A stretch of DNA of 10,743 nt from a virus (taxonomy: Duplodnaviria > Heunggongvirae > Uroviricota > Caudoviricetes), in IMG/VR virus record IMGVR_UViG_2690316267_000013. One strand, given 5' to 3'. The notes beneath the pieces were generated by a model. That model saw only the letters and a program-made list of their open reading frames with translations, had not been told where the DNA came from and did not search any database. The number at the start of each line of letters is the position of its first letter. Positions within the stretch are counted from its first letter, which is position 1. Position numbers and translations under genes: made by a program. This document shows positions 1 to 10,704 of this stretch, one piece after another.

Positions 1-2334
1 TCAGGTTGTTGCAGGGTCGTCACATTTTGGCAGCCAGTCGCCGTAGCTTTCCTCTTTCAGCGTCAGGTTGGTCTGTATCCCCTGTTTGGTATGGCGCTTC
101 TCGTAATTCAGTCCGTATTCCTTCAGCATCACCGGCAGCCCCAGCCCGAACATTTTCAGACTGAGTACGTTCCGGTAGCCGTTTGCCTCCATGTAGGCCA
201 GATAGGCGTGATAGAGGTATTTACGGTAATTGCGCGGGATGATACTCGCGTTCCCCATATACATGCCGCTGGTCTGCGGCAGGGTTTCCAGATAGCCGAT
301 AAAATCAAACGTCGGGTCGGCATCCCGTTTGATGTTCAGCGCCTCGTCTGAGTTCTGCTGGGACTGAAGCAGTGACCGGGCGAGCATCGGGTCGCTGAAC
401 TTCTGCATCAGGTGACGCACGATGACCGCCAGCTCGCGGGTGATTTTGTCCTTAAGCTGCGGGTCGCGCTCCTGCGGGGCTATCTGTTCCGGGAAGTGAA
501 TAATCACCCGCCGGCGTGACACGCCGCCGCTGCGGTCGGTGAAGCGCATCGGGTTATTGTTCACGGCCAGAATCACCGCCGGGATGTGCGTGGAGTACGC
601 ATCCCGGTATTTCGGGTCAACGGACACCGCATCGCCGCCGGTGATGGCCTTGAGTCCGGCTCCGTCGCCGCTCCATTTTTCCTGGTCCGGCAGGCGTATC
701 AGTGAGAAGCCAGTTAACGCGGCACGTTCACGCGGGGATTCCAGCGTCTCAATGGTGGCCGACGTGGCGTTATCTTCCCCGGCCAGCAGGGTGGCTATTT
801 CGGCCATGATACTTTTGCCGCTGCCGCCGGGACCGGTCACCTCCAGAAAGAGCTGCCAGTCGTAGCGGTTTGCCAGCACCATAAACAGTGCGGCCAGAAT
901 CACGTCGCGTTTTTCCGCACGACCACCGGCGGCACGGTCAAGCCAGCGCCAGAACGCGGGGGCGTGGGTTTCCAGCGTTTCCCCTTCCACCGGCGGGGTG
1001 AAATCCACATCGCACAGGGTGCGCATCCAGTGTGACGGACTGTGCGGGTGGAACGTGCCGCTCTGCGTGTCGAGCACGCCGTTACGAAAGCCAATCAGGC
1101 GGCGGGAGGGGGCTTCCTGCTGCGGAATAATCAGCTTCAGGGTGTCCACCACGGAGGCCACCTTCCCGGAGGAGAACGGCGCGCGCAGCCGCTGAAACAG
1201 CCCGGCCACATCCCGGGCAAAGTCCTGTGGTGGCAGCACCTTCCAGACACCATTTTCATAACGGGACAGAAGCTGGCCGTTGGCATCGACCGCGAGCGCC
1301 TCGCCGTAATGCTCATAGATACGCATGGCCTTTTCGCTGGTACTCATGGCGGAAAACTCCGCTTCGCTCATGGTGTCGAACGGGCTTTCAGCCGGTGGCC
1401 GGATGGCATCATAAATGGCCTTACGGGTGGCTTCCCCGCCGTACTGCGTGAAGGCATCATTCCAGTCACCGAAGACCGGCGGCAGGGCAACAACACCTTC
1501 ACACGCATCTGCGGCTGCGGCGGCTTTTGTCTGGCCGTCACCGCTGAGGTCACGGTCAGCAGCAAGGACAATATGACAGGCCGGATGCTTCTGCCGGGCA
1601 AGGCTGGCCAGAGAAAGGAGGTTCACGGAAGAAAGCGCCACCATCACCGTTTCACCGGTCAGGTGATGTACGGTAAGTGCGGTCGCGTATCCCTCCGCTA
1701 TCCACAGACGTTTTCCGGCCTGATTCTGTCCTTCAAGGGTGTGACAGGTGCCCCTGACCTGTCCGCCTTTCAGGGTACGCTTACGGCCGTCAGCACTGAT
1801 TAACTGAAGGTTAACCAGTTCGCCGCTGTCGTCATACAGTGGCACCACAAGGTCACCGGCGCGCCAGCTCACGCCACCGGCTCTGTGTGTGCCGGTCAGC
1901 ATCCGGCATTCCCGGCCGGGAAAGCCCTTGCGGGTCAGGTAGGCGTTACCGGTTCCGGGACGGGTTTTTGCCATCAGGGTTTGTGCCAGTGCGGCGGCGT
2001 TCTTCCGGGCAGCGTCTGTTTCAGCAACGGCGGCGGCCGTCACTGCCGGGTCAGCCGGGGGCAGACTGCCGGTCACGGCAGCCACCTTTGCGGCCGCGTC
2101 GGACGGGGAGACACCAAACACCTTTTCAACCAGTTTCAGGCCGTCACCGGCACCACACTGATTGCAGTACCAGGTGCCGCGCCCCTCCCTGTCATCAAAA
2201 CGGAAGCGGTCACTCCCGCCACAGACCGGACAGGGCTGATGACGGTTTTTCAGCACCTGAATCCCCAGCGCCGGGAGAATACGCGGCCAGTGGCCGAGCG
2301 CATGGCTGACGGTGGCGGTTACGTTCATTTTCAT
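1..2334 (-). CDS. alpha: P4-type alpha replication protein: zinc-ribbon/TOPRIM primase fused to a P-loop helicase, 777 aa
   Basis: N-terminal Cys4 motif (CPVCGG...CNQCG), TOPRIM acidic motif (LAADRD), Walker A (GPGGSGKS). Length is identical to P4 alpha. SD aaggag lies about 9 nt upstream of the ATG at 2332-2334. Stop codon at 1-3. Confidence 0.9.
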   Translation of the reverse strand: MKMNVTATVSHALGHWPRILPALGIQVLKNRHQPCPVCGGSDRFRFDDREGRGTWYCNQCGAGDGLKLVEKVFGVSPSDAAAKVAAVTGSLPPADPAVTAAAVAETDAARKNAAALAQTLMAKTRPGTGNAYLTRKGFPGRECRMLTGTHRAGGVSWRAGDLVVPLYDDSGELVNLQLISADGRKRTLKGGQVRGTCHTLEGQNQAGKRLWIAEGYATALTVHHLTGETVMVALSSVNLLSLASLARQKHPACHIVLAADRDLSGDGQTKAAAAADACEGVVALPPVFGDWNDAFTQYGGEATRKAIYDAIRPPAESPFDTMSEAEFSAMSTSEKAMRIYEHYGEALAVDANGQLLSRYENGVWKVLPPQDFARDVAGLFQRLRAPFSSGKVASVVDTLKLIIPQQEAPSRRLIGFRNGVLDTQSGTFHPHSPSHWMRTLCDVDFTPPVEGETLETHAPAFWRWLDRAAGGRAEKRDVILAALFMVLANRYDWQLFLEVTGPGGSGKSIMAEIATLLAGEDNATSATIETLESPRERAALTGFSLIRLPDQEKWSGDGAGLKAITGGDAVSVDPKYRDAYSTHIPAVILAVNNNPMRFTDRSGGVSRRRVIIHFPEQIAPQERDPQLKDKITRELAVIVRHLMQKFSDPMLARSLLQSQQNSDEALNIKRDADPTFDFIGYLETLPQTSGMYMGNASIIPRNYRKYLYHAYLAYMEANGYRNVLSLKMFGLGLPVMLKEYGLNYEKRHTKQGIQTNLTLKEESYGDWLPKCDDPATT

Positions 2335-3260: not shown

Positions 3261-3540
3261 GCGTCCTGTCTCCCCGGTCTTTCTGCTGGGCGAGAAAATC
3301 GCGGCACAGGCCTTTGGCTTTCAGCTCATTCAGCACAAAATCAATATCTTCATTCAGGTAGCTGAAAATATGCGGAATGTAGAGCTGATGCAGGCCGGAG
3401 AGTTCACGGTGAATCAAATCACCCCCAACAAACTGGGATACGGCGCTGGCGCGGTTGAGCTTATGGTAAGCCTCAATGCTGAGGTGTTCACGGGCGTCAT
3501 GACGTGCTGAGACGGTCTGAGGGGCTTTTTTATTACGCAC
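3253..3540 (-). CDS. 95-aa protein with GTG start; possible equivalent of P4 epsilon (helper-prophage derepression) by position
   Basis: GTG at 3538-3540 is preceded by a strong SD (GGAGG, 6-nt spacer). It reads to TGA at 3253-3255. The ORF track merges this into a longer 177-aa ORF, but the SD-GTG context supports the 95-aa product. The functional call is positional only. Confidence 0.45.
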
Positions 3541-3730
3541 GGGACACCTCCACCACCGGCAGACGGGCAGCAAGGGAGAGCACATAGTCACGGACAAGGG
3601 AACGGCGGGCGCTGCGTTCATCACCGGCGACGGTGCGAAGCATACAGATACGGGGATGACGGCCTGCGCGACGGACAGCCGCAAACACAAAGACAAATTC
3701 AGGGTGTGAGGGGGTAAGGGTTGTAGCCAT
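3533..3730 (-). CDS. 65-aa first ORF of the left operon, Kil-like by position; its SD overlaps a seqC-like RNA target site
   Basis: ATG at 3728-3730 with SD AAGGAGG (plus-strand 3739-3745). Its stop overlaps the GTG of the next gene (GTGCGTAA). The ORF track extends this frame to 199 aa, but the upstream part is low-complexity and covers the immunity RNA region. Confidence 0.45.
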
Positions 3731-3741
3731 GATGGCAGCCT

Positions 3742-3782
3742 CCTTGAAGTAACAGTTACAGCTACCACTGGAGTTCCTACGC
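3742..3782 (-). promoter_or_regulatory. seqC-like target site (ccttgaagtaac ... gagttcctacgc) complementary to seqB of the candidate CI RNA
   Basis: Shares two sequence blocks with the site at 3963-3990. Both blocks are complementary to 3805-3828. Overlaps the SD of the 65-aa ORF. Confidence 0.5.
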
Positions 3783-3789
3783 TCATGGG

Positions 3790-3875
3790 TGGTAGCCCGG
3801 ACGGGGGTAGGAATACCGGCCTTCAAGGAAACCGGCCAGCCCGAAGGCTGCCCCGCCCGGACCACCATTATCTGA
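3790..3875 (-). ncRNA. cI: Candidate CI-like immunity RNA containing a seqB element (approximate boundaries)
   Basis: Non-coding stretch between the two target-like sites. It contains 3805-3828 (gggggtaggaataccggccttcaagg), the reverse complement of blocks in both flanking sites. A stable hairpin with a UUCG tetraloop on the minus-strand RNA lies at 3837-3850, and a possible closing stem pairs ggtggtccgg with ccgggctaccacc. Ends were not determined. Confidence 0.4.
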
Positions 3876-3962
3876 CAGAGGCTACGGTTTAAAAACCACA
3901 GCCAGAAAAACAGGTGTGCCGAAGCAACGACGTAAAAAAAGACGCATGGCGCGTCATATGTC

Positions 3963-3990
3963 GCCTTGAAGTAACTCGGGTTCCTACGCC
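3963..3990 (-). promoter_or_regulatory. seqA-like target site in the leader of the early leftward transcript
   Basis: ccttgaagtaac at 3964-3975 and ggttcctacgcc at 3979-3990, both complementary to the seqB-like element at 3805-3828. Confidence 0.5.
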
Positions 3991-4018
3991 CGGCTGCCGA
4001 TTTTGCGGCAGCGGAAAA

Positions 4019-4048
4019 ACTATATCCGCAAATGCCGGAAAAAGGCAA
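4019..4048 (-). promoter_or_regulatory. Candidate sigma70 early leftward promoter (PLE-like)
   Basis: On the minus strand: -35 TTGCCT (4043-4048), 18-nt spacer, -10 TATAGT (4019-4024). This would start the transcript about 20 nt upstream of the seqA-like site. By eye only. Confidence 0.35.
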
Positions 4049-4083
4049 GCCAGAAAAAGGGAGTTTTTGCAGAGCGGGCATCA

Positions 4084-4350
4084 TCATGCGTCGTACCCCC
4101 GTTTGCGTCCGGCAATGCGTCCGGCCATCCATGCGGTGACTTCAGAGTGCAGCCAGGCCACATTTTTACCGCCAAGACTCACCTGCGGCGGAAATTCCCC
4201 CTTACGGATGAGTTCATAGATGGTCGAGCGTGACAGGCCGCACAGGTGCATCACTTCCGGCAGACGTAAAAAACGCTCCTGCGTGATGTCCGGCAGCGGC
4301 ATCAGTGGCGTCACAGGGGCGGGAGACGGGGAAGAAAAAACAGCTTGCAT
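4084..4350 (-). CDS. vis: Vis/AlpA-family small HTH DNA-binding protein (late-promoter regulator and excision factor), 88 aa
   Basis: 88-aa ORF with SD gaggt about 7 nt upstream of the ATG. AlpA-like signature (LRLPEV...[16 protein letters not shown]). Same size and position as P4 vis (orf88). Confidence 0.75.
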
Positions 4351-4452
4351 CGGGCTACCTCGTTAATGTCCATACAGCACCGGATAAGTCCGTCCGGCTT
4401 CGGGTAGCGCTTTATTTTGTGAATATTTTTGGCAGACGCAACAGGGGGGATT

Positions 4453-4470
4453 TGTTCCGGCAGCCTTACA
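4453..4470 (-). promoter_or_regulatory. TGT-N12-ACA box (Delta/Ogr-type activator site) for the leftward late promoter (PLL-like) upstream of vis
   Basis: TGTtccggcagccttACA with exact 12-nt spacing, centred about 110 bp upstream of the vis ATG. Confidence 0.4.
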
Positions 4471-4496
4471 ATGACTGTGTGTTTTTTGTTCATTCC

Positions 4497-4525
4497 CACT
4501 TAAAGTCATTTAAAGCCACTTAAAG
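4497..4525. repeat. Three tandem 10-bp repeats CA(C/T)TTAAAG with one-helical-turn periodicity
   Basis: cacttaaag at 4497-4505, catttaaag at 4507-4515, cacttaaag at 4517-4525. Confidence 0.6.
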
Positions 4526-4629
4526 CAATTCGTAATTTTTATAGTGAAATACAAATCGTTTCTTCTTATTCATTCACGGCGAATTAATAAAAACAAACAG
4601 TAGTAAACAGCACAAAAAGTCCATGAGCG

Positions 4630-4733
4630 GGTGAACAGTGGTGAACAGACGGTGAACAGTCATTACTGCGATTGTTCACCCTTTAACTTACTGTATTACT
4701 TATCTTTTTTCTTATGGTGAACAGAGGTGAACA
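4630..4733. repeat. Iteron cluster: six copies of the P4 type-I octamer TGTTCACC (five as GGTGAACA, one inverted); putative alpha-binding origin
   Basis: GGTGAACA at 4630-4637, 4640-4647, 4651-4658, 4716-4723 and 4726-4733; TGTTCACC at 4673-4680. The cluster is flanked by a direct repeat aaacaaacagta at 4591-4602 and 4748-4759. Confidence 0.6.
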
Positions 4734-4812
4734 GTAAAATATAAAAAAACAAACAGTAAGCCGGTTTTTCCTGCGACCTTTTCCTGGCTTGCCGGTCTGA
4801 GGATGAGTCTCC

Positions 4813-4902: not shown

Positions 4903-5637
4903 ATGTCTGACAACACCATCCCTGAATATCTGCAACCCGCACTGGCACAACTGGAAAAGGCCAGAGCCGCTCATCTTGAGAACGCCCGACTGATGGATGA
5001 GACCGTCAAGGCCATTGAACGGGCAGAGCAGGAAAAAAATGCGCTGGCGCAGGCCGACGGAAATGACGCTGATGACTGGCGCACAGCCTTTCGTGCAGCC
5101 GGTGGTGTCCTGAGCGACGAGCTGAAACAGCGCCACATTGAGCGCGTGGCACGCCGGGAGCTGGTACAGGAATATGACAATCTGGCCGTGGTGCTGAATT
5201 TTGAACGTGAACGCCTGAAAGGGGCGTGTGACAGCACGGCCACCGCCTACCGGAAGGCACATCATCACCTTCTGAGTCTGTATGCAGAGCATGAGCTGGA
5301 ACACGCCCTGAATGAAACCTGTGAGGCGCTTGTCCGGGCAATGCATCTGAGTATCCTGGTACAGGAAAATCCGCTCGCCAACACCACCGGCCATCAGGGC
5401 TACGTCGCACCGGAAAAGGCTGTCATGCAGCAGGTGAAATCATCGCTGGAACAGAAAATTAAACAGATGCAAATCAGCCTCACCGGCGAGCCGGTTCTCC
5501 GGCTGACCGGACTGTCAGCGGCAACACTCCCGCACATGGATTATGAGGTGGCAGGCACACCGGCACAGCGCAAGGTGTGGCAGGACAAAATAGACCAGCA
5601 GGGAGCAGAGCTTAAGGCCAGAGGACTGCTGTCATGA
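4903..5637 (+). CDS. sid: Sid, capsid size-determination external scaffold protein, 244 aa
   Basis: ATG at 4903 preceded by SD aggag with a 7-nt spacer; the ORF track starts 18 nt earlier at an in-frame GTG at 4885. Length from the ATG equals P4 Sid. Coiled-coil-like, Ala/Glu/Leu-rich sequence. Stop overlaps the delta start (ATGA). Confidence 0.85.
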   Translation: MSDNTIPEYLQPALAQLEKARAAHLENARLMDETVKAIERAEQEKNALAQADGNDADDWRTAFRAAGGVLSDELKQRHIERVARRELVQEYDNLAVVLNFERERLKGACDSTATAYRKAHHHLLSLYAEHELEHALNETCEALVRAMHLSILVQENPLANTTGHQGYVAPEKAVMQQVKSSLEQKIKQMQISLTGEPVLRLTGLSAATLPHMDYEVAGTPAQRKVWQDKIDQQGAELKARGLLS

Positions 5638-6134
5638 TTTACTGCCCGTCGTGTGGACATGTTGCTCACACCCGTCGCGCACATTTCATGGACGATGGCA
5701 CCAAGATAATGATTGCACAGTGCCGGAATATTTATTGCTCTGCGACATTTGAAGCGAGTGAAAGCTTTTTCTCTGACAGTAAAGATTCAGGAATGGAATA
5801 CATTTCAGGCAAACAGAGATACCGCGATTCACTGACGTCGGCCTCCGGCAGTATGAAACGCCCGAAAAGAATGCTTGTTACCGGATATTGTTGTCGGAGA
5901 TGTAAAGGCCTTGCACTGTCAAGAACATCGCGGCGTCTGTCTCAGGAAGTCACCGAGCGTTTTTATGTGTGCACGGATCCGGGCTGTGGTCTGGTGTTTA
6001 AAACGCTTCAGACCATCACCCGCTTCATTGTCCGCCCGGTCACGCCGGACGAACTGGCAGAACGCCTGCATGAAAAACAGGAACTGCCGCCAGTACGGTT
6101 AAAAACACAATCATATTCGCTGCGTCTGGAATGA
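5634..6134 (+). CDS. delta: Delta, late transcription activator with two Ogr-like zinc-finger modules, 166 aa
   Basis: Two Cys4 modules (CPSCGH...CRNIYC and CRRCKG...CTDPGC). Length equals P4 Delta. Start is coupled to the sid stop. Confidence 0.85.
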   Translation: MIYCPSCGHVAHTRRAHFMDDGTKIMIAQCRNIYCSATFEASESFFSDSKDSGMEYISGKQRYRDSLTSASGSMKRPKRMLVTGYCCRRCKGLALSRTSRRLSQEVTERFYVCTDPGCGLVFKTLQTITRFIVRPVTPDELAERLHEKQELPPVRLKTQSYSLRLE

Positions 6135-6207: not shown

Positions 6208-6780
6208 ATGGAAAGCACAGCCTTACAGCAGGCCTTTGACACCTGTCAGAATAACAAAGCAGCATGGCTGCAACGCAAAAATGAGCTGGCTGCGGCCGAA
6301 CAGGAATATCTGCGGCTTCTGTCAGGAGAAGGCAGAAACGTCAGTCGCCTGGACGAATTACGCAATATTATCGAAGTCAGAAAATGGCAGGTGAATCAGG
6401 CCGCCGGTCGTTATATTCGTTCGCATGAAGCCGTTCAGCACATCAGCATCCGCGACCGGCTGAATGATTTTATGCAGCAGCACGGCACAGCACTGGCGGC
6501 GGCACTGGCACCGGAGCTGATGGGCTACAGTGATCTGACGGCCATTGCCCGAAACTGTGCCATACAGCGTGCCACAGATGCCCTGCGTGAAGCCCTCCTG
6601 TCCTGGCTTGCGAAGGGTGAAAAAATTAATTATTCCGCACAGGATAGCGACATTTTAACGACCATCGGATTCAGGCCTGACGCGGCTTCGGTGGATGACA
6701 GCCGTGAAAAATTCACCCCTGCGCAGAACATGATTTTTTCGCGTAAAAGTGCGCAACTGGCATCACGTCAGTCTGTGTAA
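6208..6780 (+). CDS. psu: Psu, polarity suppression (Rho antagonist) and capsid decoration protein, 190 aa
   Basis: 190-aa ORF, last gene of the sid-delta-psu operon, directly upstream of cos. Same length and position as P4 Psu. Confidence 0.85.
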   Translation: MESTALQQAFDTCQNNKAAWLQRKNELAAAEQEYLRLLSGEGRNVSRLDELRNIIEVRKWQVNQAAGRYIRSHEAVQHISIRDRLNDFMQQHGTALAAALAPELMGYSDLTAIARNCAIQRATDALREALLSWLAKGEKINYSAQDSDILTTIGFRPDAASVDDSREKFTPAQNMIFSRKSAQLASRQSV

Positions 6781-6849: not shown

Positions 6850-6944
6850 CGTTTCCCTGCCTCATTTTCTGCAGACCGCGCCATTCCCGGCGCGGTCTGA
6901 GCGTGTCAGTGCAACTGCATTAAAACCGCCCCGCAAAGCGGGCG

Positions 6945-6963
6945 GGCGAGGCGGGGAAAGCAC
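6945..6963. other. cos site: 19-nt P2/P4-type cohesive-end sequence GGCGAGGCGGGGAAAGCAC
   Basis: Exact match to the 19-nt cohesive end shared by P2 and P4 as I recall it. Located between psu and the cargo gene, as in P4. Flanked by inverted repeats at 6872-6899 and 6977-7015. Confidence 0.7.
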
Positions 6964-7198
6964 TGCGCGCCCCCGGTTGGTGCTCGTTACTAATGTTTTT
7001 TGCGCCCGAGCACCGTCGGGAAGGGGCTGGGGGGGATAGGGGAGGTGCCTGACGTCGCGCGGTAATGTTGGTAAGTGTGCCGCTGATGGCTTCTGAGGGG
7101 AGTGGTAAATAGCCGCCTTTCGACGGTGTAGTGGGGAGAGTATTGCTTACAAACGTAATGAAATTGTTTGAGTAGCTAGGCTACTGCATAGGATTATT

Positions 7199-7228
7199 TT
7201 GTTCTGTTAATATATCCGTTAATATAGA
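7199..7228 (+). promoter_or_regulatory. Candidate sigma70 promoter of the cargo gene
   Basis: -35 TTGTTC (7199-7204), about 18-nt spacer, -10 TATAGA (7223-7228) in an AT-rich stretch. Direct repeat gttaatata at 7202/7205-7213 and 7219-7227 overlaps the spacer. By eye only. Confidence 0.3.
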
Positions 7229-7254
7229 TAGATTGATCCAATTGAGTTTAAGGA

Positions 7255-8964
7255 ATGAGTATGTTTCAGATATCAGCTGGAGTGTTCTTTGATTTAGATA
7301 AAATAGAAAAACACGATGGCACATTTGTTTTTTATTCAAATGTTGATGTGTCTTTCTCGGTGGAAAACACCTCCCCTCTTTTTAAAGCAAATAAAATAAG
7401 TCATGATGGTATAAACTGTTATGTGGTAAACTATACTCTCCTGACCGAAAAACCAGAACGAATTGAAGCTGGAGTCGTAGTTAGGGCTGGTGATGAGGAT
7501 TATAGGCAACAATTTATTTTATTATGGGAATTCTATTTTGATTGTGTGGCTAGAGTAGAAAAAGAATCGGTTAAAAAAATATGTGCATTATCAAATTTTA
7601 ATAAACATCACTCAAAAATTGCGCTTGAAGTTGCCCCATATTTAGTGGAGATTAATCGAAGAGTTTCATTTGATGATGTCTCTGGGTTTTCTGCTTTTAT
7701 TAAAGATGTAGTGAATCTAAATAGATCTGCCTTTAAATCTTTAATGGCAGCGTTAAAAATAATTAGTGATTCAAAAGAATCATTGTCAACCAACTTTGAC
7801 CTGACTTATTCCATGTTAGTCTATGCCTTGGAGTCTTTGTCTCAAAGAAATGATAACTATAAGTCTGATTGGGATGACTACGATCAAAAAACCAGAGGTG
7901 AATTAGAGTCTGTATTTGAGCATATGCCTGGTGAGGATGTTTGTAAAATTAAATCAATACTTATTGAAGGCAAACAATTCAGATTACAAAAAAGGTTCAA
8001 AGATTTTATACTGAAAAATCTTGAAGAAAATTATTTCAATGAAACAGAGAGATATCCAATCCGCTATAGCTTCCTTAGTAGAGCTTTAGATAATTTATAC
8101 AAAATCAGGTCTTCTTTTGTCCATGAGCTTAAGCCACTTGATGCAATGATCTCGAAAGCCTACAATCCTGTTGGTGATTGTCTGGTTCTTTTTGGCGAAC
8201 CTCACTTCAGTTACTCTGGATTGCTTCGACTTCTTCGCCATGTGATAATAAATTTTTGCCGTAAAAACTACAGTCAAAAAAGAGAGTCTGTTAATTGGGT
8301 GATGGAAACATCGGGTGTAATGGTTGCAGAGATATCTGCACAATATTGGCTCTGGAATGCAGACGGATTTACAGCTAAAAGTATAGCGAAGTGGTTTAGT
8401 GAATACCTAAATATGTTAAATTTAGGCGAAGTCACTGATTTGCAGTCTATCATGGACAAAATTGAGATAATCTATGATCAATCCAAAAAAGAATATAAAA
8501 ATGGGTTGTTGCATTTTTATTTCTTATATAACTTAATGCATAATGGAAATAAGGGTGAATGGCTTGAGTTTGCGAACAAGCGAAGTTCTATACTTGTTTG
8601 TGATATATATTGGTATTCATGCTCTCCATATTTATATAAATCATTTACTAATGTTTCAAATGGTATTGCTGATATAAAAACATTGAGAAACTTTTTGTCT
8701 TGTTTTAACGAATATGATAAAAATAAATTTAAGCCAAATCGTTTAAATCTCCCTGCAATGACCGAAGTAATTATGTTGGCTTGCGCAGCAAATTCATTCT
8801 TCAGAATTGGAATGTATCAAGACTATGTTTTAATGGGCAATAGAGCGATGAGAGAAATTGCTTCAGTAAAAGATGTATTTTATTATATAAAAGAACGATT
8901 AAGTAATTCACAACTTATTGAATTGGACGAGTGCTTGAGATTGTATAGAAAAAAGGGGGGCTAA
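7255..8964 (+). CDS. Low-GC cargo protein of unknown function in the cos-int hotspot (569 aa from the first ATG; 567 aa from the better-placed ATG at 7261); candidate anti-phage or abortive-infection protein
   Basis: Long uninterrupted ORF with SD aagga 6 nt before the ATG at 7261. Composition is AT-rich and Lys/Asn/Ile/Phe/Tyr-rich, contrasting with the GC-rich satellite core. No Walker A and no YxDD motif. One R-x4-H motif (IRSSFVHE, codons at 8104-8127). Occupies the position where P4 carries gop-beta-cII. Confidence 0.8.
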   Translation: MSMFQISAGVFFDLDKIEKHDGTFVFYSNVDVSFSVENTSPLFKANKISHDGINCYVVNYTLLTEKPERIEAGVVVRAGDEDYRQQFILLWEFYFDCVARVEKESVKKICALSNFNKHHSKIALEVAPYLVEINRRVSFDDVSGFSAFIKDVVNLNRSAFKSLMAALKIISDSKESLSTNFDLTYSMLVYALESLSQRNDNYKSDWDDYDQKTRGELESVFEHMPGEDVCKIKSILIEGKQFRLQKRFKDFILKNLEENYFNETERYPIRYSFLSRALDNLYKIRSSFVHELKPLDAMISKAYNPVGDCLVLFGEPHFSYSGLLRLLRHVIINFCRKNYSQKRESVNWVMETSGVMVAEISAQYWLWNADGFTAKSIAKWFSEYLNMLNLGEVTDLQSIMDKIEIIYDQSKKEYKNGLLHFYFLYNLMHNGNKGEWLEFANKRSSILVCDIYWYSCSPYLYKSFTNVSNGIADIKTLRNFLSCFNEYDKNKFKPNRLNLPAMTEVIMLACAANSFFRIGMYQDYVLMGNRAMREIASVKDVFYYIKERLSNSQLIELDECLRLYRKKGG

Positions 8965-8980
8965 CCCCTTTTATTTTTAA
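8949..8980. terminator. Bidirectional intrinsic terminator shared by the convergent cargo and int genes
   Basis: aaaagggggg-ctaa-cccctttt hairpin (G/C stem 8955-8968) with T-tracts on both sides (tttatttttaa on plus; U6 on minus). The stop codons of both genes (8962-8964 and 8961-8963) lie inside the loop. Confidence 0.5.
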
Positions 8981-10157
8981 CGTATTCTCCCCACCAATCC
9001 ATCAATTCAATTCGCTGCACGAGATAAGTAGAACGATTGTATGCTTTTCTAACTTCATTTTTATCACTGTGGGCTAAGGCAGACTCGATAACATCAGGAT
9101 TTAATCCAGCTTCATTCATGGCTGTACTTGCTATTGAACGTAATCCATGGGCAACTAATTTTCCGCCAAAACCAATACGTTTTAAAGCTGCATTTGCAGT
9201 CTGACTGTTCATTGGTTTCTTTGGGTCATTCCGACTCGGAAAAACATATTCACGATGAGCACTAATAGGCTTCATCACATTAAGAATCTCTAATGCCTGA
9301 GATGATAGAGGAATTATGTGTTCCCGTTTAGCCTTCATCCGTTCGGCAGGAATCGTCCAGAGCTTTGCATGAAGATCGATTTCTTCCCACCGAGTACTGG
9401 AGGCTTCAGAAGGGCGCACAAGAGTCAGGAGTTGCCATTCAATTAGACAGCGAGTCGGGATAGACAGATTTGACATGACTAAAGAACGCATCAGCTTTGG
9501 TAATTCTTCAGGTCGAAGCGTCGGCATGTTTTGTTTTTTTGGCTTTTCGAAGGCCATGCCAACACCTGATGCTGGGTTTGCATCAATCAAGCCAGTGTTA
9601 ACCGCATAAATCATTATTTCGTTAATGCGTTGCACCAGACGACGTACAGTCTCTAATGCCCCACGAGCTTTGACTGGCTCAAGTGCTTCGACCAATGTTC
9701 TAGCTTTGATCTGCTGAACGGGCATCTCACCAACGGCGGGGAATACATCTTTTTCCAATGAGCGCCAAATATCTTTTGCATAATCAGGGGTAACACTTTT
9801 GCTTTTGAGCTGAAACCAATTAGCGGCGACCGTCGAGAAAATACTGTCCTGTGCGATTTGCTGCTGTTCCTCTGCAATTTCAGCTTGAATTTGCGGGTCA
9901 ATTCCGTTGGCTAACAAGGAAAGGTAATCCGCTCTTAAGCGTCGGGCGTCAGCAAGTGAAAGGGCTGGGAAGGCTCCTAGCCCCATCATTGTCCGTTGCT
10001 TTGTTGCCGGACGTTGATAACGGAAACGCCATAACTTCTTACCGTTCGTTTTAACGAGTAGAAAAAGACCATCGCCATCATGCAACGTTAGATCCTTTTC
10101 TAACGCTTTAGCGCGCAGTACTTCTGTGTTGGTCAGGGGGCGTGTCGTTCTTGCCAA
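8961..10157 (-). CDS. int: P4-type tyrosine integrase (N-terminal arm-binding domain plus catalytic domain), 398 aa, TTG start
   Basis: N-terminus typical of P4-family integrases (LTNTEV...GLFLLVKTNGKKLWRFRYQ...LGAFPALSLADAR). Catalytic-type HGLR and C-terminal Tyr region (RKAYNRSTY). SD gaaggag lies 8 nt upstream of the TTG at 10155-10157. Adjacent to and co-oriented with ssrA. Confidence 0.9.
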   Translation of the reverse strand: MARTTRPLTNTEVLRAKALEKDLTLHDGDGLFLLVKTNGKKLWRFRYQRPATKQRTMMGLGAFPALSLADARRLRADYLSLLANGIDPQIQAEIAEEQQQIAQDSIFSTVAANWFQLKSKSVTPDYAKDIWRSLEKDVFPAVGEMPVQQIKARTLVEALEPVKARGALETVRRLVQRINEIMIYAVNTGLIDANPASGVGMAFEKPKKQNMPTLRPEELPKLMRSLVMSNLSIPTRCLIEWQLLTLVRPSEASSTRWEEIDLHAKLWTIPAERMKAKREHIIPLSSQALEILNVMKPISAHREYVFPSRNDPKKPMNSQTANAALKRIGFGGKLVAHGLRSIASTAMNEAGLNPDVIESALAHSDKNEVRKAYNRSTYLVQRIELMDWWGEYVKNKRG

Positions 10158-10341: not shown

Positions 10342-10704
10342 TGGTGGAGCTGGCGGGAGTTGAACCCGCGTCCGAAATTCCTACATCCTCGGTACTACAT
10401 GCTTAGTCAGTCTTTACATTCGCTTGCCAGCTGCGGACGGACACGCCACTAACAAACTAGCCTGATTAAGTTTTAACGCTTCAACCCCAGGCAGGGCTTC
10501 CACGCGATCTCTTTTGGGTTTGACCTCTCTTGATCCCCGTCCTAAGAGCGGAGGCTAGGGAGAGAGGGCTCTAAGCAGGTTATTAAGCTGCTAAAGCGTA
10601 GTTTTCGTCGTTTGCGACTATTTTTTGCGGCTTTTTACGAGGCCAACCGCCCCTCGGCATGCACCTTGGGTTTCGCAAATCCCGTCGAATCCAGAATCAG
10701 CCCC
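10342..10704 (-). ncRNA. ssrA: tmRNA (SsrA), 363 nt, enterobacterial type
   Basis: The reverse complement reads GGGGCTGATTCTGGATTCGACGGG ... and ends ...GTTCAACTCCCGCCAGCTCCACCA, matching E. coli tmRNA as I recall it. It includes the tag-peptide reading frame GCAAACGACGAAAACTACGCTTTAGCAGCTTAA (ANDENYALAA stop) at 10583-10615. Confidence 0.95.

Follow-up and report, generated by a model that had tools for sequence, protein, structure and literature searches.

The window considered here, that is, the whole stretch of 10,743 nucleotides that was analysed, is a P4-like satellite prophage of E. coli located at ssrA, an identity given by the presence of psu, delta, the alpha primase, int, the C4 RNA and ssrA itself (Table 1). 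A low-GC gene of opposite orientation to int, hereafter the cargo, lies between psu/cos and int. The names "cargo" and "int" had been given to the two genes in an initial annotation made from the sequence alone, and they are right, since the element is a P4-like satellite in which a tyrosine integrase gene adjoins a low-GC gene of the psu-int hotspot. The translation of int begins with a TTG codon. The segment 6945-6963, on the other side of the hotspot, is the 19-nt P2/P4 cohesive end.

Table 1. Features of the satellite around the cargo/int junction (window coordinates).
Feature	Position	Strand	Remarks
Psu	6208-6780		
cos core, GGCGAGGCGGGGAAAGCAC	6945-6963	+	psu/cos side of the hotspot
Cargo cassette, approximate extent	7130-8978	+	promoter region, ORF, hairpin and T-tract; delimited by homology and GC drop
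Cargo ORF	7255-8964	+	569 aa; ends ...RKKGG-TAA
A-tract, ATAGAAAAAA (+ letters)	8945-8954	-	U-tract UUUUUUCUAU for int-sense RNA
Palindromic hairpin, AAAAGGGG-GGCTAA-CCCCTTTT	8951-8972	none	sequence, terminator scan, folding
CTAA, overlapping stops	8961-8964		int TAG = complement of 8961-8963; cargo TAA = 8962-8964
int, P4-type tyrosine integrase	8961-10157	-	398 aa; ends ...KNKRG-TAG
T-tract, TTTTATTTTT	8969-8978	+	U-tract for cargo-sense RNA; opposite strand codes int K-N-K
Conserved WWG codons of int	8988-8996	-	final invariant block before the cassette-specific tail; tail comparison
ssrA (tmRNA)	10342-10704	-	integration site adjoining int

According to Rousset et al. 2022 (PMC9122126), the psu-int hotspot of P4-like satellites carries defence systems in either orientation. 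In other E. coli elements found at ssrA, NACHT, SIR2+ATPase or hypothetical genes replace the cargo. The element studied here resembles the hotspot as presented in that paper and in a more recent one (NAR 2026, PMC13586616), where low-GC variable cassettes adjoin cos in either orientation, and differs from it in that the cargo family is putative and not a validated defence system. Term searches of both papers found neither the int-side boundary nor terminators described, nor an int tail that the cassette supplies.

The cargo probably starts at the ATG at 7261, as annotated in RefSeq, which yields a protein of 567 aa. In the cassette region the GC content falls to ~32%, and in two Enterobacter asburiae loci without int (L009 and L010) homology covers exactly 7130-8978, although in L009 the homology breaks off at an IS200-family insertion, and 8978 could therefore mark an IS event rather than the end of the cassette. 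Judging from its sequence, the cargo is probably an ApeA-like, HEPN-motif gene and a candidate anti-phage function. In common with ApeA and ApeA-like HEPN anti-phage proteins, it has an R-x4-H motif that is invariant (R283...H288 in the 567-aa form) and weak profile matches, namely to Cas13-ApeA of PADLOC (E = 7e-6) and, in the case of one homologue, to HEPN_Apea of Pfam (E = 0.024), both below the curated thresholds; one homologue is named "Apea-like HEPN domain-containing protein" in UniRef. Unlike those proteins, it gave no match at the level of curated thresholds, PDB sequences or folds: a Pfam search with the cargo and 19 homologues returned nothing above threshold, a sequence profile search of the PDB returned 0 matches, and the AF2 model of the cargo (pLDDT 75.6) had no fold match in the PDB at E below 0.001. 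The recently described HEPN protein DARNA was considered as an identity for the cargo and discarded, with no link in a text search and no PDB profile match.

The cargo and int meet tail to tail at a palindromic hairpin positioned exactly at their junction, which is the sole convergent gene junction of the window (positions 8940-8985 read attgtatagaAAAAAGGGGGGCTAACCCCTTTTATTTTTaacgtat). As initially annotated, the cargo ends in KKGG-TAA and int, on the opposite strand, in KRG-TAG, in agreement with the ORFs at 7255-8964 (+) and 8961-10157 (-), and the two stop codons have 2 nt in common (8962-8963) inside the tetranucleotide CTAA, which lies in the hairpin loop. Two pairing registers can be drawn. 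In the first, 8951-8958 pairs with 8965-8972 around the loop GGCTAA; in the second, which is that of the initial annotation, G8957-8960 pairs with C8965-8968, leaving CTAA as the loop. The G/C core corresponds to 8955-8960 with 8965-8968, and the stem is composed of four G-C pairs plus either four A-U or two G-U pairs. On the + strand the hairpin is flanked by an A-tract on one side (with its A-run at 8949-8954) and by a T-tract on the other, and on both strands the stem is immediately followed by a U-rich tract, UUUUAUUUUU on the + strand (8969-8978) and UUUUUUCUAU on the - strand (complement of 8945-8954); the T-tracts reported on both sides of the G/C stem are therefore real. All these segments are also coding, with 8945-8954 specifying the cargo residues R-K-K, and the final five int codons (KNKRG) and the int stop falling within the hairpin and the T-tract.

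This organization is like that of bidirectional Rho-independent terminators, where a G/C stem-loop preceded by an A-tract and followed by a T-tract separates tail-to-tail genes, an arrangement explicitly described for TransTermHP (PMC1852404). It is unlike them in that the core has four G-C pairs, the intergenic spacer is zero, and the arms and tracts are all coding, with both stops in the loop. The 46-nt region folds with -14.1 kcal/mol as + RNA (z -2.7) and -10.4 kcal/mol as - RNA (z -1.9), the dG of the hairpin core being -6 to -8 kcal/mol and reaching -10 to -13 once the A:U extension is counted. A terminator scan with maximal stem extension called the junction hairpin on the + strand only, since on the - strand this extension consumes the U-tract; in our own scan, in which sub-maximal stems were allowed, it was called on both strands, and it was the sole site in the 10.7-kb window to qualify as a terminator on both. 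Dinucleotide shuffles produced a mean of 0.17 bidirectional sites per window and of 0.036 for the low-GC segment 7130-9300, any such site appearing in 3.4% of the shuffles of that segment. Stems of intrinsic terminators usually have at least 5 bp. The TransTermHP rules discard stems of 4 pairs or fewer and discourage pairing between A-tail and T-tail (PMC1852404), meaning that a hairpin with a four-pair core would be borderline or rejected under them. An Rfam search of the junction matched no known RNA family.

The layout is common at the psu-int locus. P4-like integrases were collected from IMG/VR, a collection of viral contigs, and counted by junction class, of which 63 were found. A hairpin of -10 kcal/mol or better occurs in 16 of 20 convergent classes (median -13) against 0 of 25 co-directional ones (median -3.7; Mann-Whitney p = 1e-6). 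At the convergent junctions, a T-tract satisfying the terminator rules occurs in the cargo sense in 14/20 classes and in the int sense in 8/20, whereas in co-directional cassettes the start site abuts or overlaps the int stop and there is no hairpin. The junction had initially been qualified as unusually compact, which is an exaggeration: convergent junctions at the hotspot normally measure 0-63 nt, a stop codon lies inside the span of the best hairpin in 9 of the 20 convergent classes, and the present case is a very compact example, at the extreme of a continuum, and not a new kind of element. The location of the palindrome, where the variable region meets int, could also evoke a recombination or cassette-exchange site, used for swapping the hotspot contents. 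This was rejected as extremely improbable, because the junction hairpins of different cassettes were found to have no sequence in common and because hairpins are absent from co-directional cassettes, even though these are likewise swapped.

Scans for cargo relatives yielded 3 loci in genome contigs and 14 in metagenomes, 5 of the latter being useful. Eight variants, with cargo identities as low as 69%, share the 4-nt stop overlap; they come from Erwinia, Pantoea, Pectobacterium and metagenomes and show it as CTAA, TTAA or CTAG. The 20 E. coli genomes compared have either C or T at 8961 and hence CTAA or TTAA, the TTAA form being carried, for example, by E. coli ATCC 8739 (genes ECOLC_RS05685/RS05690). 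In the relatives, the tetranucleotide begins with C or T in all cases with int, and with G in the one int-less lineage (L009). Other relatives have a 15-nt overlap, a 51-nt overlap or a 137-nt gap. In Pectobacterium the stem is a perfect palindrome, AAAGAGGGTTAACCCTCTTT, and in a relative of 54% identity lying 137 nt from int (L041) the corresponding structure is AAAGGGAGC-TAA-GCTCCCTTT, with the cargo stop again within the loop. On alignment A3, the pairing holds in 93% of cells, both partners have changed in 3 pairs, and 0 of 500 shuffles reach the observed pairing. However, slid registers on the same alignment still pair at 78-85%, as the arms are purine and pyrimidine tracts, and this weakens the case for covariation; the differing stems of Pectobacterium and L041 are apparently compensatory. 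Two lineages, Pantoea L011 and metagenomic L024, keep the stop overlap but have little or nothing left of the hairpin (z about 0).

These last cases, together with the longer overlaps and the gap, would suit a hairpin that is a functionless by-product of joining an AT-rich cassette to int, in which int simply runs to the first stop and the tracts pair by accident, almost equally well when slid. Moreover, with the cassette stop already in the loop, int would be expected to stop there in about 1 in 6 cases (an estimate obtained from frame times C/T). This explanation seems nevertheless quite unlikely in view of the strong enrichment of hairpins at convergent junctions, of the apparently compensatory stems of unrelated sequence in Pectobacterium and L041, and of the rarity of bidirectional sites in the shuffled low-GC segment.

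The hairpin enrichment restricted to convergent junctions, the apparently compensatory stem changes and the T-tracts on both flanks make a two-way terminator the best reading. With a probability of roughly 0.55, the junction hairpin would be the 3' terminator of a defence-gene cassette of the psu-int hotspot, most likely functioning as a two-way intrinsic terminator and insulator. Termination of RNA polymerase at the hairpin, which the initial annotation took to be kept in both directions, is predicted from these features, and it may be weak, given the 4-bp G/C stem and the decay of the hairpin in two lineages. In E. coli, a stop codon located 5 bp from the terminator tR2 was found to lower its efficiency from ~90% to under 10% owing to ribosome occlusion (PMC4824070); with both stops inside the loop, tightly coupled translation should similarly suppress termination.

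Such occlusion, expected when a stop codon lies in or near a terminator, and the weakness of the G/C core fit a different role, in which the hairpin would act mainly as a 3'-end stabiliser or processing barrier: polymerases would read through, Rho would stop the untranslated antisense RNA, and exonucleases would trim it back. Read-through RNA would contain more C than G on either side, a composition favourable to Rho loading (the GC skew of the + strand is +0.10 to +0.27 in the cargo 3' half and -0.10 at the int 3' end), and in the cargo sense the palindrome of L041 is followed by a poor U-tract, UUUGAGGC. In the window, however, good U-tracts directly follow the stem on both flanks, and the cargo-sense T-tract recurs at most of the convergent junctions surveyed. 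In addition, the Psu protein encoded by the satellite inhibits Rho (PMC11718236), and a purely Rho-based stop would therefore fail whenever Psu is made. A role of this kind is thus judged rather unlikely, without being negligible.

A weak stem would also fit an element unable to terminate transcription alone, as in collision-type bidirectional termination, where the stem-loop only positions the head-on encounters of int and cargo polymerases and it is the collisions that release them. According to Wang et al. (bioRxiv 10.1101/2022.10.23.513370), Ju et al. 2019 found numerous bidirectional terminators where E. coli genes converge, and a stem-loop is needed there to set the place of collision. 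The same text describes those terminators as unlike intrinsic ones, whereas here canonical U-tracts are found on both sides. Besides, int, with its TTG start, is presumably weakly transcribed in the lysogen, which makes frequent collisions doubtful. The whole proposal seems improbable.

In the model proposed for the two-way terminator, a cassette spanning about 7130-8978 would supply not only the HEPN-motif ORF but also a promoter region and a terminator, short and symmetric, formed by the A-tract, the G/C stem and the T-tract. It would have been joined to the satellite backbone inside a dispensable C-terminal tail of int, ~3 codons past WWG. From there, the int frame would run backwards through the T-tract and the 3' arm (AAA AAT AAA AGG GGT = KNKRG) and halt at the first in-frame stop, the C/TTA in the loop, overlapping the cargo TAA by 2 nt. 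Transcription would stop at UUUUAUUUUU in the cargo direction and at UUUUUUCU in the int direction, curbing the antisense transcription of each gene by its neighbour.

The hairpin moves together with the cargo cassette. That the cassette carries its own terminator, into which the int ORF runs, is suggested by three observations: the homology of the int-less Enterobacter copies extends to 8978; across the 63 junction classes the integrase tails show no conservation beyond WWG-x-[FKY]-[VI], diverging ~3 codons past WWG; and in two loci with backbones 99% identical (L045 and L068) divergence begins directly after WWG. Among nearly identical int backbones that carry different cassettes, only this one pair was informative, which does not suffice to establish a fixed breakpoint or recombination hotspot. 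The idea that the cargo had been fitted flush against int should accordingly be turned around, as the reverse probably occurred, with the int-less homology ending at 8978 and the int tails diverging after WWG. The int-side edge of the hotspot would then lie inside the integrase gene, each cassette supplying its own int ending, with convergent cassettes bringing a terminator hairpin and co-directional ones a start site at the int stop. Such an edge would help to delimit cassettes precisely for cloning with their native signals, and cassette orientation would predict which defence genes are co-transcribed with int.

A more speculative extension, to which we assign a low likelihood, is that the hairpin works as a translation-gated reciprocal terminator, the ribosome that finishes either ORF melting the stem. 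A well-translated cargo mRNA would in that case read through and silence int by antisense or collision, the reverse also applying, while poorly translated RNA would terminate. Defence-gene expression would become coupled to the stability of satellite integration, and the int tail encoded by the cassette would serve as a built-in "adapter" shared by all hotspot cassettes. Taken alone, the junction is a small regulatory detail, a probable two-way terminator; the influence of translation on terminators placed on stop codons could be studied on it as a natural test case.

As in other convergent gene pairs with a 4-nt stop overlap (YTAR), the two stops share the central TA. CTAA, CTAG, TTAA and TTAG are the sole tetranucleotides permitting such an overlap, and three of the four were seen among the relatives. 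In contrast to those pairs, the overlap here sits in a hairpin loop, and overlap and hairpin are conserved together across genera.

The convergent cargo and integrase (int) genes of this P4-like satellite prophage, which is integrated at ssrA, end within a single hairpin that encloses both stop codons. Intrinsic terminators that act in both directions are textbook elements of convergent gene pairs, and convergent genes with overlapping stops also form a known class; the present junction is an unusually compact example of a known element type. The region 8940-8985 reads attgtatagaAAAAAGGGGGGCTAACCCCTTTTATTTTTaacgtat, with the cargo (569 aa) ending in ...LYRKKGG-TAA and int (398 aa) in ...WWGEYVKNKRG-TAG. 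The initial annotation had described two stops sharing two bases of CTAA, this tetranucleotide forming the loop between paired GGGG and CCCC, with T-tracts on both sides; all of this was confirmed, and the arrangement exceeds chance. Six A residues stand upstream and the tract TTTTATTTTT downstream. In another register, AAAAGGGG pairs with CCCCTTTT. When 46 nt were folded, the cargo-sense RNA gave -14.1 kcal/mol (z -2.7) and the int-sense RNA -10.4 kcal/mol (z -1.9), the G/C core by itself contributing only -6 to -8 kcal/mol. A built-in scan called the junction terminator-like on the plus strand alone, its total for the window (14 sites vs 12.5 expected) being not above chance; when a site had to qualify as a terminator in both directions, the window yielded exactly one, at 8961-8962, against 0.17 per window, or 0.036 for the low-GC segment, in dinucleotide shuffles.

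Features of the satellite and of the cargo/int junction
Feature	Coordinates	Strand	Remark
Alpha-type primase-helicase	1-2334	-	
DUF5375			in window
C4 immunity RNA and isrK	3785-4025	-	
Sid-position ORF			in window
Delta	5634-6134		
Psu	6208-6780		
Strong G/C hairpin CCGCCCCGCAAAGCGGGCGG	within 6922-6963		terminator-like on -; adjoins and partly overlaps cos core
cos core GGCGAGGCGGGGAAAGCAC	6945-6963		followed by cargo, then int
Cargo ORF	7255-8964	+	
A tract (six A)	8949-8954		
5' arm	8951-8958		
int stop	8961-8963	-	complement of CTA
Cargo stop	8962-8964	+	TAA
3' arm	8965-8972		
Downstream tract	8969-8978		
int ORF	8961-10157	-	three-domain tyrosine integrase
tmRNA	10342-10704	-	

The most likely mechanism, to which we assign a confidence of 0.55, is that the hairpin would function as a two-way intrinsic terminator insulating both genes. 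Caution is called for, as TransTermHP (PMC1852404), by its stated rules, would drop a 4-bp G/C core such as this one. In addition, when a stop codon was shifted to 5 bp from the terminator tR2, ribosome occlusion lowered termination from ~90% to <10% (PMC4824070); since the loop here contains both stops, the element would be expected to act mainly on RNA whose leading ribosome trails the polymerase. Alternatively, the hairpin could serve as a 3'-end stabiliser while Rho performs the actual termination, for which the read-through RNAs, untranslated and richer in C than in G, would be suitable, but the satellite's own Psu inhibits Rho (PMC11718236). Bidirectional termination of the collision type (bioRxiv 10.1101/2022.10.23.513370) is another alternative.

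The exact junction was found in 20 of 5,426 complete E. coli genomes, including ATCC 8739. Over the 121 nt compared, the sole polymorphism among the 20 is C/T at 8961 (CTAA in 9 genomes, TTAA in 11, ATCC 8739 among the latter), which is silent in the cargo and gives int a TAG or a TAA stop, respectively. The 4-nt stop overlap is retained in relatives with as little as 69% cargo identity, as TTAA in L022, Pantoea (L011) and Pectobacterium (L016), as CTAG in L036, L037 and the metagenomic L024, and as CTAA in Erwinia (L019), so that three of the four tetranucleotides permitting two overlapping stops are in use. Every lineage with int has C or T at the first position, and the int-less cargo lineage L009 has G, a pattern consistent with selection acting on both stops.

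The hairpin is near-identical across E. coli, Erwinia, L036 and L037, and in Pectobacterium it is a perfect palindrome (AAAGAGGGTTAACCCTCTTT; -12.6 and -11.1 kcal/mol, z ~ -3.4). Those of Pantoea L011 and L024 are decayed (z ~ 0), and loss of the hairpin in two lineages calls for caution with the terminator reading; a further alternative is that the hairpin and shared stops are a functionless by-product. In a pair count over nine sequences, 93% of cells were paired, with both-sided changes in three pairs, and none of 500 shuffles matched the observed pairing. Since the arms consist of purine and pyrimidine tracts, slid registers still gave 78-85% pairing; covariation is supportive but not decisive. 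Among more distant relatives, cargo and int overlap by 15 nt in L040, with a strong hairpin right behind the cargo stop, and by 51 nt in L026; L041 has a 137-nt gap, yet a perfect palindrome, AAAGGGAGC-TAA-GCTCCCTTT, again holds its cargo stop in the loop. The cargo of Erwinia rhapontici (L019:3495-5203) is a pseudogene, being split between two or more ORFs (3495-4253, 4385-4792), the junction hairpin and CTAA overlap remaining intact nonetheless.

Cargo homologues of Enterobacter asburiae (L009, L010) lie in another ssrA island, without integrase, and their homology to the window covers 7130-8978, spanning the hairpin and T-tract and going no further. The base preceding their TAA is G, making an int stop on the other strand impossible. 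The homology break in L009 could be IS-related, since at L009:5704-6546, as at L010:5704-6545, an IS200/IS605-family (Y1 transposase) element directly follows the cargo with its hairpin, together with a partial ssrA att copy. The same boundary, ~3 codons past WWG, emerged from int tails, and one backbone pair, 99% identical, splits right after WWG. Together, these limits place the hairpin within the cassette. The cargo tail KKGG is a reading of the A-tract and 5' arm, and the int tail KNKRG plus stop an opposite-strand reading of T-tract (AAA AAT AAA), 3' arm (AGG GGT) and loop (TAG). The earlier picture of a cargo fitted against int is thus probably better inverted: int runs into the terminator of the cassette, as the homology end at 8978 and the int tails indicate.

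The locus is the psu-int defence hotspot of Rousset et al. 2022 (PMC9122126), in which, according to that paper, defence systems occur in both orientations; the hotspot itself is already published. Both orientations were also seen in our sample, eighty loci from the viral-contig collection IMG/VR with close integrase relatives plus other loci, giving 63 distinct int-tail classes. Throughout these, the integrase is invariant through WWG, followed by three weakly conserved codons, x-[FKY]-[VI], the whole block lying at 8979-8996 in the window; beyond it, tail and stop differ with each cassette (loci L042-L121, L001-L007). The int gene ends 7-12 codons past WW, the cassette-specific remainder being 4-15 residues. 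The int-side edge of the hotspot accordingly lies inside the int ORF. GC drops from ~55% to ~32% across the cargo and rises again only gradually within int, the 3' third of which (9000-9300) has ~39% vs ~47% in the rest, a difference hinting at possible joint inheritance of part of the gene and the low-GC cassette.

Hairpins followed cargo orientation. Convergent junctions (20 classes; gap to the int stop -15 to +63 nt) had a best-hairpin median of -13 kcal/mol, 16 being at or below -10 kcal/mol, whereas the 25 co-directional classes (-26 to +118 nt) had a median of -3.7 kcal/mol and none at that level (Mann-Whitney p = 1e-6). This dependence favours a transcriptional role and counts against a recombination site. 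No common sequence was found among hairpins of different cassettes. The best-hairpin span includes the int stop in six convergent classes (clearly in loop or arm in L045, L051, L072 and L107) and the cargo stop in three; T-tract criteria held in the cargo sense in 14/20, in the int sense in 8/20 and in both in 6/20. The junction called unusually compact is indeed at the compact extreme, but of a design common at the hotspot. Co-directional cargos have their start at -26 to ~ +40 nt relative to the end of int, in many cases with an ATGA-type 4-nt overlap, and lack a hairpin (L001-L004, L006-L007, L052, L055, L061, L066, L071, L081, L102, L103, L105, L120), which suggests int-defence operons with translational coupling. 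Term searches of PMC9122126 and PMC13586616 found no description of a cassette-supplied int tail and stop, nor of hairpins marking convergent cassettes and absent from co-directional ones, which adjoin or overlap the stop of int; both points are modest yet useful generalisations.

The cargo itself has no Pfam family, and neither a PDB sequence match for its family nor a PDB fold match for its AF2 model (pLDDT 75.6) was found. A weak match to PADLOC Cas13-ApeA (E = 7e-6), an R-x4-H motif invariant in the family and the UniRef name of one homologue ('Apea-like HEPN') were obtained. Judged by its sequence, it is an ApeA-like HEPN-motif protein, its family (~70 clusters in Enterobacterales, Vibrio, Aeromonas and others) being an uncharacterised candidate defence protein. 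The ORF finder placed its start at ATG 7255; ATG 7261 is likelier, given the spacing from AGGA (7251-7254) and the 567 aa recorded in RefSeq and the protein database. A 69%-identical homologue is present in a P2-like phage (L038:2501-4210), flanked by the tail genes gpS and gpV. P4 and P2 almost never have defence genes in common, according to a NAR 2026 study (PMC13586616), so the family may be an exception. Further homologues occur in a Klebsiella island (L012-L015) and in L039, and two-gene P4-like hotspots (L040:647-4195, L115) pair an AIPR-domain protein with a 60%-identical cargo homologue, the convergent overlap with int there being 15 nt.
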